NCBI GenBank assembly: GCA_000999095.1
Contig: LCFP01000003.1
Location: 26,839-90,838, forward strand
DNA: 64,000 nucleotides
Direction: 5' to 3'
From: Candidatus Gottesmanbacteria bacterium GW2011_GWA2_43_14
GTDB taxonomy: Bacteria > Patescibacteriota > Microgenomatia > 2-02-FULL-39-11
The position numbers and the translations under genes are program-made. Shown one piece after another: positions 56,686 through 64,000 of this stretch. The notes below the pieces were generated by a model. That model was given only the letters and a program-made list of their open reading frames with translations. It did not search any database and was not told where the DNA came from. Every line of letters begins with the position of its first letter. The first letter of the stretch is position 1.

Positions 56686-57234
56686 ATGAATCCGGCAGCA
56701 GTAACAACCTTTCTGTCAGTCTTAACGGTTGCAGGCTTAGTGGGAGCAGTTTTTCTGGCCTTAATTTATCTATTACCAAAAAACTCCAAAAAAACCGGGA
56801 AAAAGCTTGTTCCGCTTAAACAGTGGTTATCCCAATACGCTTTTCATCTGGCGCTGATCGTTTCTTTAACGGCGACCATGGGCAGTTTATATTTTTCTGA
56901 AATTGCAGGGTATGAACCGTGCAAACTGTGCTGGTACCAGCGTATTTTGATGTACCCGCAAGTTTTATTGCTGGGATTAAGCCTGATCATGAAAGATAAG
57001 AATATCGGCCGGTATCTGTTGATGCTTTCTCTTATCGGTTTACCTGTGGCCGTCTACCATTACTACCTGCAATGGGGAGGCAATCCGTTGGTTCCCTGTT
57101 CCACTGTCGGCATATCGGTTGACTGTTCCGACAGGTTTGTGATGCAGTTTGGGTTTGTTTCCATCCCTTTTATGTCTTTTACTTCATTTTTGCTGATTGC
57201 CCTTTTAATGCTTTTCCCCAAAAAAAGCAGGTAA
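56686..57234 (+). CDS. dsbB: disulfide bond formation protein B (DsbB/BdbC family)
   Basis: 4 TM; CKLCWYQR first Cys pair and second Cys pair in periplasmic loop (C…C at PCSTVGISVDC). Confidence 0.7.
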   Translation: MNPAAVTTFLSVLTVAGLVGAVFLALIYLLPKNSKKTGKKLVPLKQWLSQYAFHLALIVSLTATMGSLYFSEIAGYEPCKLCWYQRILMYPQVLLLGLSLIMKDKNIGRYLLMLSLIGLPVAVYHYYLQWGGNPLVPCSTVGISVDCSDRFVMQFGFVSIPFMSFTSFLLIALLMLFPKKSR

Positions 57235-57285: not shown

Positions 57286-57552
57286 ATGGCAGAAAAGGAA
57301 AAAAAAGGCTGGGGCACGAAAATCCTGGAAGTTTCCCAGAAAGTAGATAAATATGTAATAGTCGCGGGTCTTGGCATGATTGCCTACGGTTTAATCGCAG
57401 CCTCATCAGCTGCGGTAGGATGGGGGGCGTTGGCTGCAGGTACGAGTGCAGCGACCTATGCCGGAGCCGAATACATAAAAAACAGAAAGAAAAGAAAGCA
57501 AGGATCAGTCAGAGTCAACCGCAGGTCTAAGGCAATCTATAATGATGTCTGA
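57286..57552 (+). CDS. small membrane protein (hypothetical)
   Basis: 88 aa, two TM, basic C-terminus. Confidence 0.4.
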   Translation: MAEKEKKGWGTKILEVSQKVDKYVIVAGLGMIAYGLIAASSAAVGWGALAAGTSAATYAGAEYIKNRKKRKQGSVRVNRRSKAIYNDV

Positions 57553-58092
57553 TTATTGGGGTTTATCGGGAGATGGAGCAGTTGCCGGCGAAGAAGGGGG
57601 AGGAGTAACCGGTTGAACCTGAGGGGGTACGGCTGGGGTTATGTCAGCCGGAGCGGGAGCCGGAGATGCCACAGGCTCTGCTGCCGCCGGTGCCGCTGAC
57701 TGATTCTGTAAATCCGCCATCTGCTGGAAAAATGCATCCACTTCCCTGACAACGTCCATGGGTGTAAATTGGGCTTTGATCAGATAACCGTCAGCCCCGA
57801 TTTTGAAGGCTTCCTTGATGATATCTTCCTGGCCAAGATTGGTGATCAGAATGATAGGTGTATTTTTCGTCGGAGAAGTAGGGGCTCTCATGGCCCGCAG
57901 GACATCGATGCCGGTAACCTTTGGCAGCATGATATCCAAAAGAATCAGATCGTATACATGGCTGCTTAATTTAACCAGAGCTTCTTGTCCGTCCGAAGCA
58001 GTTTCGACCGAATAATTGCCGGTTTTAACGAAAGACATGCGGTAGATTTCCTGAATGTGGAAATCGTCCTCAACCAATAACAGGGTTTTCAT
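57553..58092 (-). CDS. single-domain response regulator with Pro/Ala-rich C-terminal tail
   Basis: LLLVEDDFHIQEIY…DLILLDIMLPKVTGIDVL…; tail …PAPAPADITPAVPPQVQPVTPPPSSP. Confidence 0.8.
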   Translation of the reverse strand: MKTLLLVEDDFHIQEIYRMSFVKTGNYSVETASDGQEALVKLSSHVYDLILLDIMLPKVTGIDVLRAMRAPTSPTKNTPIILITNLGQEDIIKEAFKIGADGYLIKAQFTPMDVVREVDAFFQQMADLQNQSAAPAAAEPVASPAPAPADITPAVPPQVQPVTPPPSSPATAPSPDKPQ

Positions 58093-58095
58093 AAT

Positions 58096-59613
58096 TTAAT
58101 TGCTGCCTGAATTGCCGGCCATCCTCTGGGAAATTCTTTCAGGATTAATCATAATACCTTTTCCGGTTTTAGACAAACTGCCGAACTGGGCTGCCGGTTG
58201 GGATGCCTGGATATTGGAAGCGATAGGCAGGGTAAAAGTGAAAGTTGAGCCTTTGCCAAGTTCGCTTTCAACTGAAATTTCTCCACCATGCATGGTAATA
58301 ATGGATTTGGAAATGAATAATCCTAAACCTGTGCCCTTGGATCCCTGTTCCAGGACGCTGGAAACCCGGAAAAATTTGGTAAAAAGCTTGGCAAGGGCTT
58401 CTTTGGGAATGCCGATGCCGGTGTCCCTGACGGAAACGGAGACGAATGAATCCTTTTTGGTAAGATAGATCTTTATTGATTCGCCAACAGGAGTATAGGT
58501 TATGGCGTTTGTTATCAAATTGGAAATAACCTGATTGATACGCGAAGAGTCAGCCATTACCAGGGGCAATTTTTCCAGCGGCTCTTCAAAAGTCAGTGTT
58601 TGTCCTTTGCTGTTTGCCTGGTCTATCATATCGGTAACGGTATTTTTCACAAGAGAGGTCAAATCCAAGGCTGCAGGTTCAATTTTATAGGACCCTCTTT
58701 CAATCCGCGAGACGTTTAACAGATTATCGATGAGAGTTCCCAAATTTGCAGCATTATATTCGAGTCGATGCAGATGCTCCTGATGTTCCGGAGACAGTTT
58801 TTCGCCCAGTTCGGAGTTCAGAAGTTCGGCATATCCCCTGATGACTGTCAAAGGCGTCCGAAGTTCATGGGCTGCCATGGAAACGAAGTCTAGCTTCATT
58901 TCCTCCAGGGCTTTTTGATTGGTTTCGTCATAGAATGTCAGAATAAAACCGTGGTTTTCCTCTTCCTGGAAAGTGACTGTAGTAATGGAAACAGATACAT
59001 GGAATATCTTGCCGTCCTGCGATCTGATTTGCAGGCCGTGTTCACGATGGATTGTCGCCAGCTCATCCGGTTTGACAAAGTAATTGGAAACTATGATTTT
59101 TTCATCGCCCCCGTAAATATGAAGTATTTCATCAATATGTTTTCCGGTAACCATTTGCTCCGTAAAACCCGTGAATTTCTCGGCCGTTTTATTGAAAATC
59201 AGGACTTTGCCGCCCTGGTCCAGAGCAATTACTGCTTCAGATAAAGAAGCCAGCAGGGTTTCCATTTTCTTTTCCTGCCTGTTGAATTGCGCTTCACGCT
59301 GTCCGATTTGTTCGGTTATCAAAGTAAAAGTGGTTGACAGATGTTCTAAATCCTGACCGGCGATGCCTATGCCGGAATTGAATTTTTCCTTTTCCAGTTT
59401 TTCCAAAGCTGAGGCCATTTTGTTGCCTATCGAGCTGTAAAATAAGTTTATTACCAATATCGAAGCTAAAATAAGCAGATTACCGGCTACTAAAACCAGC
59501 CAAAAACCGGGAAGCGGTCCTCCTAAAAGATAAGCAATCAGGGCAAGTGCGGTGAAAAGGCCGGTCAGGATTACGGCTGTTATAAGGGATTTTGCTCTCA
59601 AGCTTATTTTCAT
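58096..59613 (-). CDS. membrane sensor histidine kinase (2 TM, PAS domains)
   Basis: H-box [16 protein letters not shown]; HATPase; 3-nt gap to downstream receiver gene. Confidence 0.85.
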
Positions 59614-60189: not shown

Positions 60190-61479
60190 ATGCATAATCT
60201 TGATTTGACGCTTTCCGACATCTCCAAAATTGAAGGCAAAGCAGGCTGTGACATCAAAATCCGCGACGGTCTTGTCAAAGAAGTAAAATTCTCCATAGCT
60301 GAATTTAAGCGGTTCTATACCCAGGCAATCCGAGGGAAGGACATAGCTGCCCTGCCTCAACTGACAGCCAGGATTTGCGGCACCTGCTCCAACGCCCATT
60401 TGCTGTGCGCCATCAAAGCCTGTGAAAATATTTTGGGCATTAAAGTCAGCCAACAAACACTCCTGCTCCGGCAACTTTTGAACTTCGGCTTAATAATCAG
60501 GGATCATGCTTTACATTTATATATATTCGTCCTACCTGATTTTTTCGGCCGGGATTCGATTTTGGATTTTAAAGAAGATGACGGCCCGGAGCATAAATTT
60601 CTACATGATGCTTTCGCGGTAAAGTCTGCCGGGAATCATTTAAGCATAGCTGTTGGCGGCAGAAGCGTTCATGCACCGTATCCGATGGTGGGCGGTTTTA
60701 CCAGGCTCCCGGATAAGGCGGAACTCATTAAATGCCTGCAGGAATTAAAAGGGATCAGATCACGGGTAATTGATCTGGTAAAGTTATTCTTGGAAAAAGA
60801 CAAAACACTGGTCCGGAACAACCTGCAGTTTGCCGCTCTTCTGGACGAATCATATTCCTTTCTGGATGGAGAAATTTATCATACGGACGGCAAAGAAGCA
60901 CCGGAAAAATACGGAGATAATCTGAAATATGTATCCATCCCGTATTCACATGCCTCCGGATTCCGTTTCAGAGGCAAAACCTTCATGACAGGTGCCCTGG
61001 CCCGGCTGAACCTGGGGAAAGAAAAACTGCATAAAAAATCCAAGCAAAGTTTGGGGCCAATTTTGGACATTTTTCCGTCCCAAAATATATATCATAACAA
61101 TTTAGCCCAAGCCATAGAGATTCTCCACAGCATCGATTCGGCGGCTGATATTATTGAAAATCTGGATATCAAAGAGGAGAAACAACTGCCTATAACCAGA
61201 AAGGCCGGGGAAGGAGTGGGAGTCATTGAAGCACCGAGGGGGATACTTTATTACCGCCTGGCAATTGACGGAACCGGCCGGATAATCAAAGGGCAGATTG
61301 TTGTTCCTACAGGCCAAAATCAGATCGGCATCGAAGAGTCTATCCGGGTTTATCTGGAAAACAATCTTGAAAAATTAAATGACAGGGAAATATTGGAAAA
61401 AGAAATCGAATCAATAGTCCGGGCATATGACCCCTGCATGAGCTGCGCCTCACATTTCCTCAAAATCCGCTACAGCTGA
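60190..61479 (+). CDS. [NiFe]-hydrogenase large subunit (group 3-like)
   Basis: N-terminal RICGTCSNAH (RxCGxCxxxH) and C-terminal DPCMSCASH Ni-binding motifs; stop 1 nt after small subunit stop. Confidence 0.85.
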   Translation: MHNLDLTLSDISKIEGKAGCDIKIRDGLVKEVKFSIAEFKRFYTQAIRGKDIAALPQLTARICGTCSNAHLLCAIKACENILGIKVSQQTLLLRQLLNFGLIIRDHALHLYIFVLPDFFGRDSILDFKEDDGPEHKFLHDAFAVKSAGNHLSIAVGGRSVHAPYPMVGGFTRLPDKAELIKCLQELKGIRSRVIDLVKLFLEKDKTLVRNNLQFAALLDESYSFLDGEIYHTDGKEAPEKYGDNLKYVSIPYSHASGFRFRGKTFMTGALARLNLGKEKLHKKSKQSLGPILDIFPSQNIYHNNLAQAIEILHSIDSAADIIENLDIKEEKQLPITRKAGEGVGVIEAPRGILYYRLAIDGTGRIIKGQIVVPTGQNQIGIEESIRVYLENNLEKLNDREILEKEIESIVRAYDPCMSCASHFLKIRYS

Positions 61480-61847
61480 TTTACCAGAATTTCACATAAT
61501 TCCGCAACAGCTTTATCAGGAAGTATATGGTCCGGAACTCCGATGATGAGAAAATCGTTCAGCTTTCTTAATTTTTTTCTTAAGGATAATTCCAAAAAAA
61601 GATCGTAATCATGAACGCTGACATTCGGAGTAGGGGAAAAGGCGGACAGGGAATTAAAGATAGTGATTTTCTTAATACCCAGAACCGTATCAATCAAAAC
61701 CAGTTTTTCCGCTTCATCCGGCAGTTCTTCGGTCGGGTCGTATTTTATGAAATTAAATCCGGGCAATTTTCTTTTAAGACGCGGCAGAATTTTAAGGGGC
61801 AGGGAATCCCGGGGTAAAAGCATATTGCCCAAACAATAAACATTCAT
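61470..61847 (-). CDS. hydrogenase maturation endopeptidase (HycI/HoxW/HybD-like)
   Basis: …VYCLGNMLLPRDSLPLKI…LVLIDTV…HDYDL…IIGVP pattern of hydrogenase maturation proteases. Confidence 0.6.
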   Translation of the reverse strand: MNVYCLGNMLLPRDSLPLKILPRLKRKLPGFNFIKYDPTEELPDEAEKLVLIDTVLGIKKITIFNSLSAFSPTPNVSVHDYDLFLELSLRKKLRKLNDFLIIGVPDHILPDKAVAELCEILVNQL

Positions 61848-62605
61848 GAGTTAATAACCTGCAGGGATAGATTTGTATAATATTTAAGATTTATTAGCTG
61901 CCGGACTTCCAGCTTCTGGCAGAAATAGCCCCAGTGGTAGGAAAGGTAATCGCCTTTTACGAGATCTGACTTTAAAGCGTCGCTCTTACCCTGGTATTTA
62001 ATGTTTCTGGTTATTTTTTTCGTCAGATGCAGTTTTCCCGCCACATCTTCCAGTTTTTGCGTCGTGACTTTGATTGTGCCGTCCTCGTTAAAAGCAATAA
62101 TTTTACCCCAATTGATAAGGCAGGCATCCATAGTTTCCAAAGTATGTGGAATATTGAGATGCCCGGTTCTTCGCCAGACTGCCAGGACATGAAAGGAATG
62201 GTGGGGTTTGGGGGACCTTGGGAAAAAGTTTACCAGCCGCTTCAGCTCCCCCGGACTCTTTTTTTTCAGTTCCATTTTATCAATCAGATGATCCGCGTAA
62301 CTTTTGATCCTGACCTTCTCCAGAAGCTGATTTCCCAGCCAGTATGCTTCGACCACCAGCGGATCAAATGGATCAGAGAAATTATTCTGGTAGGCAATCA
62401 GACAAAGATAAGGATATAAAGTTGAAAAATTCCCTAAAATCTCTGAGGCACCCAGGTCAAGTATGGCAGTTTCCGAATAGTAGGCCATGTCTTTTTTTTT
62501 GTTCAAGGGTCCGCATAAAGAAAGCGAGTTGGGAGGATATGCATAGCGGCTGCAGAGAAAGATGCCGCTAGACGACGATGCTGCGGTTTTTTGGTCGGAA
62601 AACAT
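61844..62605 (-). CDS. hypothetical protein embedded in hydrogenase maturation operon
   Basis: 253 aa, CxxxxxxxxxxxxC near N-terminus; overlaps both neighbours. Confidence 0.5.
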   Translation of the reverse strand: MFSDQKTAASSSSGIFLCSRYAYPPNSLSLCGPLNKKKDMAYYSETAILDLGASEILGNFSTLYPYLCLIAYQNNFSDPFDPLVVEAYWLGNQLLEKVRIKSYADHLIDKMELKKKSPGELKRLVNFFPRSPKPHHSFHVLAVWRRTGHLNIPHTLETMDACLINWGKIIAFNEDGTIKVTTQKLEDVAGKLHLTKKITRNIKYQGKSDALKSDLVKGDYLSYHWGYFCQKLEVRQLINLKYYTNLSLQVINS

Positions 62606-63449
62606 AAATCAGCATAATGCCTGAAAGCGAGAGAATCAGGTTGTTTAATTGCAGTCCGGAAATGAATTGACGTGTCCAAAACATATTTAAGAGATTGGTG
62701 ACAGGGGTGGCCAGAATCAGAATGGCGGTCACCTGGGTAGCTGGGGCATACTTTAAGGCTGAAAAAAGACCGGTGACATAAAGAGTCAGAAGCACAATAG
62801 AAGGTATTACCGGCAGCAGGGTGGTCCAATCAAGCAAAAATAATAATCTGAGTTTTGACTGCCAGGCGGCAATTCCGATTAAAATCAGACTTCCCAAAAA
62901 CATCCGGCTCCAGGAAACCGTCAGACTTCCGGATTTGCGTAATACTTTTTTTGCCACTATATATTCACAAGACCATAATAAAGTAGCCAGAAGAATGAGA
63001 GCTTCGCCGCTGTTGAATGCAAAGCCGTTAAAACCCAGGAAGATATTTGACAAGGCTATCAGGACAAATCCGGCCACCTGAAGCATGCCCAGTTTTTCTT
63101 TCAAAAATGGAATAGCCAGAAAGGCCACCCAAATAAAAAGCGATTTATGGATCAGGTTGGCATTTATGGCCGAAGCCGATACCAGGCCGGCAAAATATAA
63201 AATAAATGGCAGACTGCCGCCGGCAACAGCAATAATTAAAAGCCCCTTCCAGTTTTTTTTAAAATCCTCAGTTATCCTGCCTCTTCGTCCGGTAAAAAGC
63301 GCCAGTGACAAAATGACGGCCGTCCCTCCGTTTTTAACGATATTAAAGATCAGGGGATCAATGCCTTTTACCAATACCTGTTTATTGTAGAAGATGGAAA
63401 CACCCGATATTAATGCTGTCAGTATGGCCCATTTGATTCCTTTATTCAT
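62568..63449 (-). CDS. EamA/DMT-superfamily transporter
   Basis: 293 aa, 10 TM, duplicated EamA-like halves. Confidence 0.7.
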   Translation of the reverse strand: MNKGIKWAILTALISGVSIFYNKQVLVKGIDPLIFNIVKNGGTAVILSLALFTGRRGRITEDFKKNWKGLLIIAVAGGSLPFILYFAGLVSASAINANLIHKSLFIWVAFLAIPFLKEKLGMLQVAGFVLIALSNIFLGFNGFAFNSGEALILLATLLWSCEYIVAKKVLRKSGSLTVSWSRMFLGSLILIGIAAWQSKLRLLFLLDWTTLLPVIPSIVLLTLYVTGLFSALKYAPATQVTAILILATPVTNLLNMFWTRQFISGLQLNNLILSLSGIMLIYVFRPKNRSIVV

Positions 63450-63453
63450 AAAA

Positions 63454-63672
63454 TCAGGAGAGTGATTTGATCAATAAGCGCACTTTCATTCCTTCCTCCC
63501 GGCTGAGCCTGGCAACAGCCAAGCCGCCTGCGACCTGCAAATATTCGCCTTTTTTTACGGTCAGATCTCCTGTCAATGATACGGTCCGGCCACCTTCTAT
63601 CATTGCTTTATTGCCGACAACCTGCAGCACTTTTACGGGAACGGTAAAACACATATTTGAATTAAAGTACAC
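63454..63672 (-). CDS. hypC: [NiFe]-hydrogenase assembly chaperone HypC/HupF
   Basis: N-terminal MCFTVPVKV (MC(L/F)xxP) signature, 72 aa. Confidence 0.8.
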   Translation of the reverse strand: MYFNSNMCFTVPVKVLQVVGNKAMIEGGRTVSLTGDLTVKKGEYLQVAGGLAVARLSREEGMKVRLLIKSLS

Positions 63673-63704
63673 CTAATATATAATATTCCAATCAATAAAT
63701 AAAT

Positions 63705-64000
63705 ATGCCCGTTCGCATAAATACCGTTTTATACAACCGCATTATTTTCGCTTTGTCGCTTTTAGGCATTATTTTAGCGGTTTATGTCCTCCAAAGTTTT
63801 CTCAGGCAAACCCCGATTGTCTGTTTGAATTCGGGCTGCGAACTGGTCAGGAAAAATCCTTTAAGCTATCCCCTTGGGATTCCGGTGCCCGCTGTCGGGC
63901 TGGTAGGTTATTCTATCCTGGCTGTTTTGGCTTTTTTAAAAACTGCTTCGACCAAGCGGAATCTGCTTTATGCTATCCTGGGCATGTCCGCTTTCGGTGT
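63705..64000 (+). CDS. vitamin K epoxide reductase (VKOR)-family membrane protein, 3'-truncated by window end
   Basis: TM helices and CxxC (VCLNSGC) in first periplasmic loop typical of bacterial VKOR. Confidence 0.5.
   Translation, partial: MPVRINTVLYNRIIFALSLLGIILAVYVLQSFLRQTPIVCLNSGCELVRKNPLSYPLGIPVPAVGLVGYSILAVLAFLKTASTKRNLLYAILGMSAFG

Follow-up and report, generated by a model that had tools for sequence, protein, structure and literature searches.

What is a protein of 253 amino acids (aa) without an assigned function doing among the maturation genes of a [NiFe]-hydrogenase? The question is raised by a locus in a 64,000-nucleotide (nt) stretch of DNA, which we call the window, from Candidatus Gottesmanbacteria bacterium GW2011_GWA2_43_14 (contig LCFP01000003.1, positions 26,839 to 90,838). 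This organism is a member of the candidate phyla radiation (CPR, Patescibacteria), and the best homologue matches also come from Candidatus Gottesmanbacteria. In the window, genes for a HypC-family chaperone, an EamA permease of the drug/metabolite transporter (DMT) type, the 253-aa protein and a maturation protease form a tightly packed operon on the minus strand, which converges on the genes for the small and large hydrogenase subunits on the plus strand. A preliminary description of this locus had called the 253-aa protein unknown. It had suggested that the four genes are transcribed together, that this protein could be an uncharacterised maturation or metal-delivery factor, and that the permease could transport nickel, cobalt or a metallophore. 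We have found that the protein, which is indeed uncharacterised, belongs to the Pfam family DUF6390 (PF19927), that the C-terminal domain of this family is homologous to HypC, and that its members are linked to hydrogenases in many genomes. It may be a dedicated [NiFe]-hydrogenase biogenesis factor which handles metal, as a chaperone or as a sensor coupled to a transporter, a reading on which our own judgement is evenly divided.

The DUF6390 family and its relation to HypC

The 253-aa protein matches the DUF6390 profile with 160.5 bits, against a gathering score of 25, and its residues 12–252 cover positions 3–238 of the 244 in the profile. Searches for DUF6390, for PF19927 and for EamA together with hyp genes have found nothing in the searchable literature. 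An AlphaFold2 model of the protein (pLDDT 87.7, pTM 0.87) has two domains: the N-terminal one is all-helical and extends to about residue 161, the C-terminal one is beta-rich and ends in a helix.

The C-terminal domain is homologous to HypC, and both functional residues of HypC are kept. When its profile was compared with 177,635 distinct PDB sequences, the three top matches were HypC/HupF proteins (E 0.0024, 0.0031 and 0.08). A comparison of the DUF6390 and HypC alignments with hhalign gave a probability of 94.5% and an E value of 8e-8. In the profile alignment, H224, in the motif GDxVSxHWG, falls on the His of the HypC motif GDWVIVHTGFA, and C162 falls on the first Cys of HypC (C2); hhalign also aligns H224 with this His. 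In HypC, C2 and H51 coordinate the Fe group on the HypCD complex together with C41 of HypD, and their exchange abolishes activity (PMC12134894). At the level of Pfam, the domain from the window matches DUF6390 alone and does not reach the PF01455 gathering score of 28.5 bits; one distant DUF6390 member scores 15.1 bits against PF01455 (E 0.026). The N-terminal domain has no relative in the PDB, either by sequence profile (best E 1.6) or by fold, where nothing ranks above the OB-fold matches.

Conservation was counted over 150 representatives of the family, at most 50% identical to each other. C31 (141/141), H136 (147/148), C162 (147/148) and the pair H224-W225 (138/139) are near-invariant, and H135, H139, D160 and C229 are highly conserved. 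The motifs of the N-terminal domain are PPNxLxxCGP, which contains C31, VVEAYWxGN, and PHHSFHV, which contains H136. Attention had been drawn earlier to a pair of Cys near the N-terminus: C31 is indeed invariant, but the other one, C18, is a Cys in only 54 of the 150 representatives. The informative residues are C31, H136, C162 and H224.

The DUF6390 protein shares several features with HypC, HybG and HupF (PF01455): an OB-fold barrel with a C-terminal helix, a Cys which opens the first strand, a His in a GDxVxxHxG motif, and a location in hydrogenase maturation clusters. On the other hand, its Cys is internal (residue 162), while that of HypC is the processed N-terminus after Met. It also has, in front of the HypC-like part, a new domain, helical and some 160 residues long, with an invariant Cys and His of its own, and it is paired with transporters and with helix-turn-helix (HTH) domains, which to our knowledge is never the case for HypC. 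HupF offers a partial parallel, since it also has a HypC-like core with an added region and is dedicated to particular hydrogenases. However, the HupF extension is reportedly short, C-terminal and bound to the large subunit, and the N-terminal Cys is said to be kept; we know of no association of HupF with transporters or HTH domains. In summary, the DUF6390 protein resembles a HypC-family chaperone most, but it misses two features which define that family (the N-terminal Cys and the Pfam threshold) and its architecture is different. Judging from sequence, it is probably a HypC-derived two-domain accessory or sensor protein, undescribed in the searchable literature.

Linkage to hydrogenases

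DUF6390 is a large family: it has 833 clusters at 50% identity, and metagenomes gave at least 598 matches. When one genome per species was scanned, 56 loci were found, all in Patescibacteria, which we call the CPR loci; a metagenome sample, from a different clade, gave 80 loci. Hydrogenase subunits are found at 47 of the 56 CPR loci. If only loci flanked by 4 kb or more on each side are considered, a hydrogenase is present at 34 of 36 CPR loci, and hydrogenase or hyp genes are present at all 15 metagenome loci, which makes 49 of 51 in total. Six further contexts all include a hydrogenase (6/6). Rather than appearing together with the permease in genomes which lack hydrogenases, or showing homology to an unrelated function, the family is hydrogenase-linked and its sole detectable homology is to a maturation chaperone. 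Both facts argue for the earlier proposal of a maturation or metal-delivery factor, which would still be uncharacterised.

Two architectures are found in the metagenome loci. In one of them, a complete group 3b operon is followed by the protease, HypC (at some loci), EamA and DUF6390. The other is a group-1-like cluster which ends with the protease, HypA, HypC and DUF6390, and has no transporter. Among the six further contexts are an EamA-DUF6390 pair of Acidimicrobiia, divergent from a full 3b operon, and the Kerfeldbacteria fusion described below. The linkage covers three hydrogenase types: the 3b-hyd2 type described below, complete 3b, and group-1-like. HypC and the hyp genes are the most constant neighbours of DUF6390. 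They are steadier than the transporters, because the HypA-HypC-DUF6390 clade has no adjacent transporter.

There are two exceptions. Locus L018 keeps the HypC-EamA-DUF6390 trio, and no hydrogenase has been found there. In locus L026 (5301-6976), the one clear exception, the neighbours of a DUF6390 gene without EamA are a type III restriction-modification methylase and a phage-type integrase; this copy could reflect mobility or decay.

Other maturation genes are scarce near these loci. In tblastn searches with the Escherichia coli HypA-F proteins as probes, HypA and HypB are mostly missing from the CPR neighbourhoods; HypD, HypE and full-length HypF gave no match in the window, nor within 10 kb of any of the 56 CPR loci. 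We have rejected this local absence as evidence of genome-wide loss, because the scan covered the vicinity of the loci and the non-CPR loci also show none of HypD, HypE or full-length HypF nearby. Unannotated open reading frames (ORFs) of 440–500 aa, which follow DUF6390 in high-GC loci, were considered as a possible new partner and discarded: they are antisense shadows of two genes in one closely related lineage, a convergent one of the aldehyde-dehydrogenase-like type and one of the major facilitator superfamily (MFS).

Fusions to HTH domains and transporter neighbours

In some members an HTH domain precedes DUF6390 in the same protein; these HTH domains belong to four unrelated families (GntR, PadR, XRE and ArsR/MarR). 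The PadR form is a 15-member cluster present on many contigs. Downstream of it is an ATP-binding cassette (ABC) system, directly upstream of a hydrogenase, with a binding protein which matches NikA best (E 1.4e-43). The XRE fusion comes after HypC and is located between two SBP_bac_5 ABC systems, which are NikA-like. The ArsR fusion lies between an MFS gene and a NicT/HoxN nickel permease, which passes the TIGR00802 curated cutoff (locus L065), with HycI and HypA nearby. The GntR fusion is followed by an ABC system of the SBP_bac_1 type, whose specificity is unclear; the best match of the SBP_bac_1 binding protein beside DUF6390 is phosphonate-type, not ferric. DUF6390 is the non-DNA-binding half of several transcription factor architectures which are found beside metal importers. 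A NicO homologue of the NicT/HoxN type also follows the EamA-DUF6390 pair in locus L124.

At two loci (L063, 2972-4156; L064, 1532-2716), a 394-aa protein without any Pfam or NCBIfam match is encoded between PadR-DUF6390 and the NikA-like ABC genes, upstream of a group-1-like hydrogenase.

There is a certain likeness to HypA, HypB and SlyD and to the nickel regulators NikR, RcnR/InrS, NmtR and Nur. By analogy with them, Cys/His nickel binding by DUF6390 might serve to feed or to sense nickel, and their genes are located beside nik or NicT-type importers, as those of DUF6390 are. On the other hand, we have found no link of sequence or fold between DUF6390 and HypA, HypB, SlyD or the known nickel regulators.

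EamA is directly upstream of DUF6390 at 49 of the 56 CPR loci and at 31 of the 80 metagenome loci, and the pair is shared by CPR and Acidimicrobiia-type genomes. The EamA subfamily which travels with DUF6390 likely gains a biological context in this way. The 293-aa permease of the window falls outside the known nickel-transporter families (NiCoT/HoxN/NicT and NikABCDE), and its only NCBIfam match, TIGR00950, is weak (25 bits, with a cutoff of 230). In a single cluster (P0126), from a Kerfeldbacteria genome (L148), EamA and DUF6390 are fused into one protein and the hyd2 module is otherwise identical; this is weak evidence for a coupling of the two proteins. A gene for an Nramp-family divalent-metal transporter is found just upstream of the fusion (6262-7512 in L148).

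A further, possible likeness concerns metallophores. CntI of the pseudopaline system, a metallophore exporter of the DMT/EamA type, works in the trafficking of nickel and zinc, and staphylopine-type systems also rely on MFS transporters and on binding proteins which resemble NikA. All three of these transporter families are represented among the neighbours of DUF6390. CntL/CntM-like genes for the biosynthesis of opine metallophores were not seen in any of the neighbourhoods.

Arrangement of the genes in the window

The features of the locus are listed in Table 1. The four minus-strand ORFs are where the preliminary description had placed them, and the junctions which it gave are correct: a gap of 4 nt between the HypC stop and the DMT start, an overlap of 38 nt between the DMT gene and the 253-aa ORF, and an overlap of 4 nt between this ORF and the protease gene. 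The protease gene is convergent with that of the large subunit, and both overlap by 10 nt.

Table 1. The hydrogenase module of the window and its features (positions in window coordinates)
Feature	Position	Strand	Evidence
HypC-family chaperone, 66 aa	63454..63654	-	PF01455, 28.1 bits vs cutoff 28.5
EamA/DMT-family permease, 293 aa	62568..63449	-	PF00892 E 5.4e-29, two repeats
253-aa DUF6390 protein, whole ORF	61844..62605	-	Pfam DUF6390 (PF19927) E 6.5e-47
DUF6390 N-terminal all-helical domain, residues 1 to ~161	62123..62605	-	AlphaFold2 model, conservation
DUF6390 C-terminal HypC-like OB-fold domain and helix, residues 162-253 and stop	61844..62122	-	
[NiFe]-hydrogenase maturation endopeptidase (HybD/HycI type), 125 aa	61470..61847	-	Fold, D14/D53/H79 triad
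[NiFe]-hydrogenase large subunit, group-3b-related ('hyd2')	60190..61479	+	NCBIfam ShyA/HydA best
Hydrogenase small subunit, truncated, 167 aa	59686..60189	+	PF01058 E 1.9e-16
Intergenic region between hypC and the divergent VKOR-family gene, presumed promoter of the hypC-eamA-DUF6390-protease operon	63655..63704	.	

The DMT gene and the 253-aa ORF do overlap by 38 nt, since no canonical start other than the ATG at 62605 keeps the conserved N-terminus: this ATG is the sole canonical in-frame start upstream of the conserved G14, and the closest homologue has an identical N-terminus. The public gene call for this protein (P0001) has 214 aa, begins at Met39 and loses the invariant C31 motif; the longer form, with 253 aa, is the correct one. 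In the case of HypC, the ORF had been listed with a start at 63672. This is the ORF as found, but its true start is the ATG at 63654 (MCFTVP...), as in all homologues; those from CPR all begin with MCF.

The arrangement of this operon is far beyond chance: the same module is found in 56 Patescibacteria genomes, with protein identities of 32–65%. We have rejected the possibility that these ORFs are fortuitous or non-coding, because they are kept at 32–65% identity across phyla. A scan for promoters and terminators gave 13 sites, with 9.8±3.2 expected, and 12 sites, with 6.3±2.9 expected; terminator-like sites are found inside coding sequence. No convincing sigma-70 match is present on the minus strand of the intergenic region upstream of hypC (63655..63704).

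HypC, the protease and the hydrogenase

The HypC of the window, whose score is slightly under the PF01455 cutoff, keeps the N-terminal Cys. The conserved His (H51 in E. coli) has been replaced, as its sequence is GEYLQVAGGLA instead of GQWVLVHVGFA. This His is missing in 33 of the 34 CPR HypC proteins encoded beside DUF6390, with L051 as the only CPR locus with a His-bearing HypC, and it is present in 39 of 40 HypC proteins at non-CPR DUF6390 loci. In DUF6390 both residues, the Cys and the His, are retained throughout the clades.

The 125-aa protein has no match in Pfam or NCBIfam, none in the PDB by sequence search, and only weak hhalign matches to HycI (E 0.2 and 0.027). Its model (pLDDT 85.5) has an alpha/beta/alpha fold, and the seven top Foldseek matches in the PDB are all HybD/HycI maturation endopeptidases; HybD (1cfz) matches with E 4.9e-6 and a TM-score of 0.71. 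The invariant D14, D53 and H79 align with D16, D62 and H90 of HycI, and two Asp and one His which bind nickel are a feature of these endopeptidases (PMC12134894). Two homologues of the 125-aa protein, P0297 and P0307, carry PF01750. By fold it is an endopeptidase of the HybD/HycI type, in agreement with the earlier identification of this ORF as the maturation protease.

The best NCBIfam matches of the large subunit are the sulfhydrogenase alpha subunits ShyA/HydA, which correspond to group 3b. It contains the motifs RICGTCSNAH and DPCMSCASH and, after the C-terminal His, a tail of 7 residues (FLKIRYS) for the protease. The NiFe-binding motifs are present in all 46 CPR large subunits (46/46), and the C-terminal tail in 42 of them. 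The CPR 'hyd2' enzymes have been defined by a truncated small subunit (164 aa on average), intact NiFe Cys motifs and the absence of adjacent beta and gamma subunits (PMC7304191). The small subunit of the window has 167 aa and no diaphorase genes adjoin the hydrogenase, so that the enzyme appears to match this group-3b-related clade, an assignment by features and not by a tree. The hyd2 clusters described by Jaffe et al. (2020, PMC7304191) share with the window the type of enzyme, the truncated small subunit and a HypC-like neighbour. However, that paper covered only neighbours on the same strand and named just a HypC-like family; the convergent EamA-DUF6390-protease genes are not described there, and it is stated that the 'function remains uncertain'.

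Several neighbouring features should also be mentioned. In L021, L023, L035 and L051, EamA-DUF6390 is found beside a more distant large subunit, 31–34% identical to that of the window and encoded on the same strand instead of convergently, which may be of the 'hyd1' type. Divergent from the small-subunit gene of the window, on the minus strand (57553-59613), are genes for a PAS-HisKA histidine kinase (505 aa) and a response regulator with only a receiver domain (179 aa). This regulator has no output domain; its tail of about 55 residues is rich in Pro and Ala and coincides with a local rise in GC to 0.51. The same pair flanks the hydrogenase in L003. Genes for disulfide bond formation are located on both sides of the hydrogenase module: a VKOR-family gene, divergent from hypC (63705-64000, plus strand), and a DsbB gene, beyond the two-component genes (56686-57234, plus strand). 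L001 and L003 have VKOR and DsbA at this same place, upstream of hypC, and L001 also has DsbD, thioredoxins and a glutaredoxin nearby. An ORF of 88 aa between the DsbB and response regulator genes (57286-57552, plus strand) codes for a hydrophobic core rich in Gly and Ala, and has no family match.

Possible function of DUF6390

The reading which we prefer is as follows. The new helical domain, joined to a HypC-type OB-fold domain, would give an accessory factor in which C31 and H136 of the N-terminal domain and C162 and H224 of the HypC-like domain may form a metal site. The HypC-like domain would dock on the maturation machinery, either the apo-large subunit, HypC or both. In the CPR operon, DUF6390 would be translationally coupled to the EamA/DMT permease, would receive or sense the metal species moved by it, and would pass the metal into the maturation of the adjacent minimal hyd2 hydrogenase. 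In other lineages, DUF6390 fused to HTH domains would be a sensor which controls genes for metal uptake and hydrogenase. We favour nickel as the ligand: some members have Nik-like or NicT importers nearby, the chemistry of Cys and His suits it, and most CPR clusters have no HypA or HypB close by; iron would be the main alternative. We infer metal binding, the identity of the metal, the direction of transport and the physical partners.

Several points weigh against this proposal. That the four invariant residues come together in one site is a supposition, and those which are common to DUF6390 and HypC are iron ligands, not nickel ligands. A metal role of the permease, as suggested in the preliminary description, would fit with the NikA-like and NicT/HoxN importers beside other members of the family, but the conserved residues of EamA include no Cys/His-rich motif, and its substrate cannot be read from sequence. 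We know of no characterised nickel transporter which is an EamA protein. An assembly error of a single base could account for the one EamA-DUF6390 fusion, since both genes overlap by 4 nt in relatives. No transporter is adjacent in the HypA-HypC-DUF6390 architecture, and DUF6390 cannot simply be a replacement for HypA, because both coexist in these clusters. Finally, the DUF6390 copy of L026 adjoins an integrase and has no hydrogenase.

The main rival, because of the homology to HypC and the His-less HypC of CPR, is that DUF6390 carries iron or Fe(CN)2CO: a HypC paralogue which, like HybG or HupF, would hold the cofactor for certain hydrogenases. In CPR it would make up for the His-less HypC, and the transporter either would be a source of iron or would have only a loose relation to DUF6390. 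We consider this possible but somewhat unlikely. The only homology that can be detected is to HypC, with both Fe-coordinating residues kept, and DUF6390 retains the His which 33 of 34 CPR HypC proteins have lost; its Cys, however, is internal and not N-terminal, and non-CPR genomes have DUF6390 together with a His-bearing HypC. HypC is the most constant neighbour, as seen in the arrangements HypC-EamA-DUF6390, HypA-HypC-DUF6390 and HypC-[XRE-DUF6390], but the repeated HTH fusions beside Nik-like and NicT importers are then hard to account for. The source of the cofactor iron is acknowledged as an open question (PMC10847431). The Nramp gene upstream of the L148 fusion would agree with iron, and so would the SBP_bac_1-type ABC systems adjoining some members, except that the SBP_bac_1 protein is closest to phosphonate-type binders. 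For the hyd2 CPR one may also imagine that DUF6390, the His-less HypC and EamA form a reduced, HypD-independent route to assemble or acquire the Fe(CN)2CO/Ni centre. DUF6390 would then be a single-chain mimic of the HypC-HypD iron site, with C31 in the place of C41 of HypD and C162 and H224 acting as C2 and H51 of HypC, and EamA would take up a precursor or a metal complex provided by the host. We regard this as a long shot.

Roles in redox protection or without any metal are less likely than metal roles. DUF6390 could be a thiol/redox protective or quality-control chaperone of the large subunit, or a redox sensor, which delivers no metal and has transporters merely as co-regulated neighbours. 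HupF is said to stabilise the large subunit under oxygen, which would be one side of its dual role in hydrogenase biosynthesis (the topic of PMC3534401). A HypC-like docking domain with conserved cysteines, flanked in Gottesmanbacteria clusters by VKOR, DsbA, DsbB and thioredoxins, would be in agreement with such a chaperone. Nevertheless, we find it improbable: the pattern of Cys and His, with its conserved histidines, resembles that of a metal site, the tight coupling to EamA and the Nik/NicT neighbourhoods are left unexplained, and the CPR carriers are presumed to be anaerobic fermenters. More improbable still is that DUF6390 assists EamA from the cytoplasm, by regulation or by substrate binding, in the handling of an amino acid, a thiol or a similar non-metal metabolite, with the association to hydrogenases reflecting H2-linked metabolism instead of maturation. 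Amino acids and metabolites make up most of the characterised substrates of the EamA family, the weak match to TIGR00950 suggests transport of carboxylates, amino acids or amines, and fusion to an HTH domain is a typical trait of metabolite sensors. On the other hand, many DUF6390 loci have no EamA, and both the homology to HypC and the position within hyp sub-operons, where DUF6390 either lies in the stretch from HypC to the protease or follows HypA-HypC, point to maturation.

For the anaerobic maturation of [NiFe]-hydrogenases, the set of six Hyp proteins has long been considered complete (PMC12134894). DUF6390 is a seventh, widespread protein family within the hyp operons of at least three hydrogenase classes. 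If it is true that it handles nickel or iron, it would give a handle on how metal reaches the maturation machinery, and transcription factors linked to hydrogenases would be seen to use a new type of sensor domain. In that case it may also explain how the hyd2 hydrogenases mature in genome-reduced CPR bacteria with a His-less HypC.

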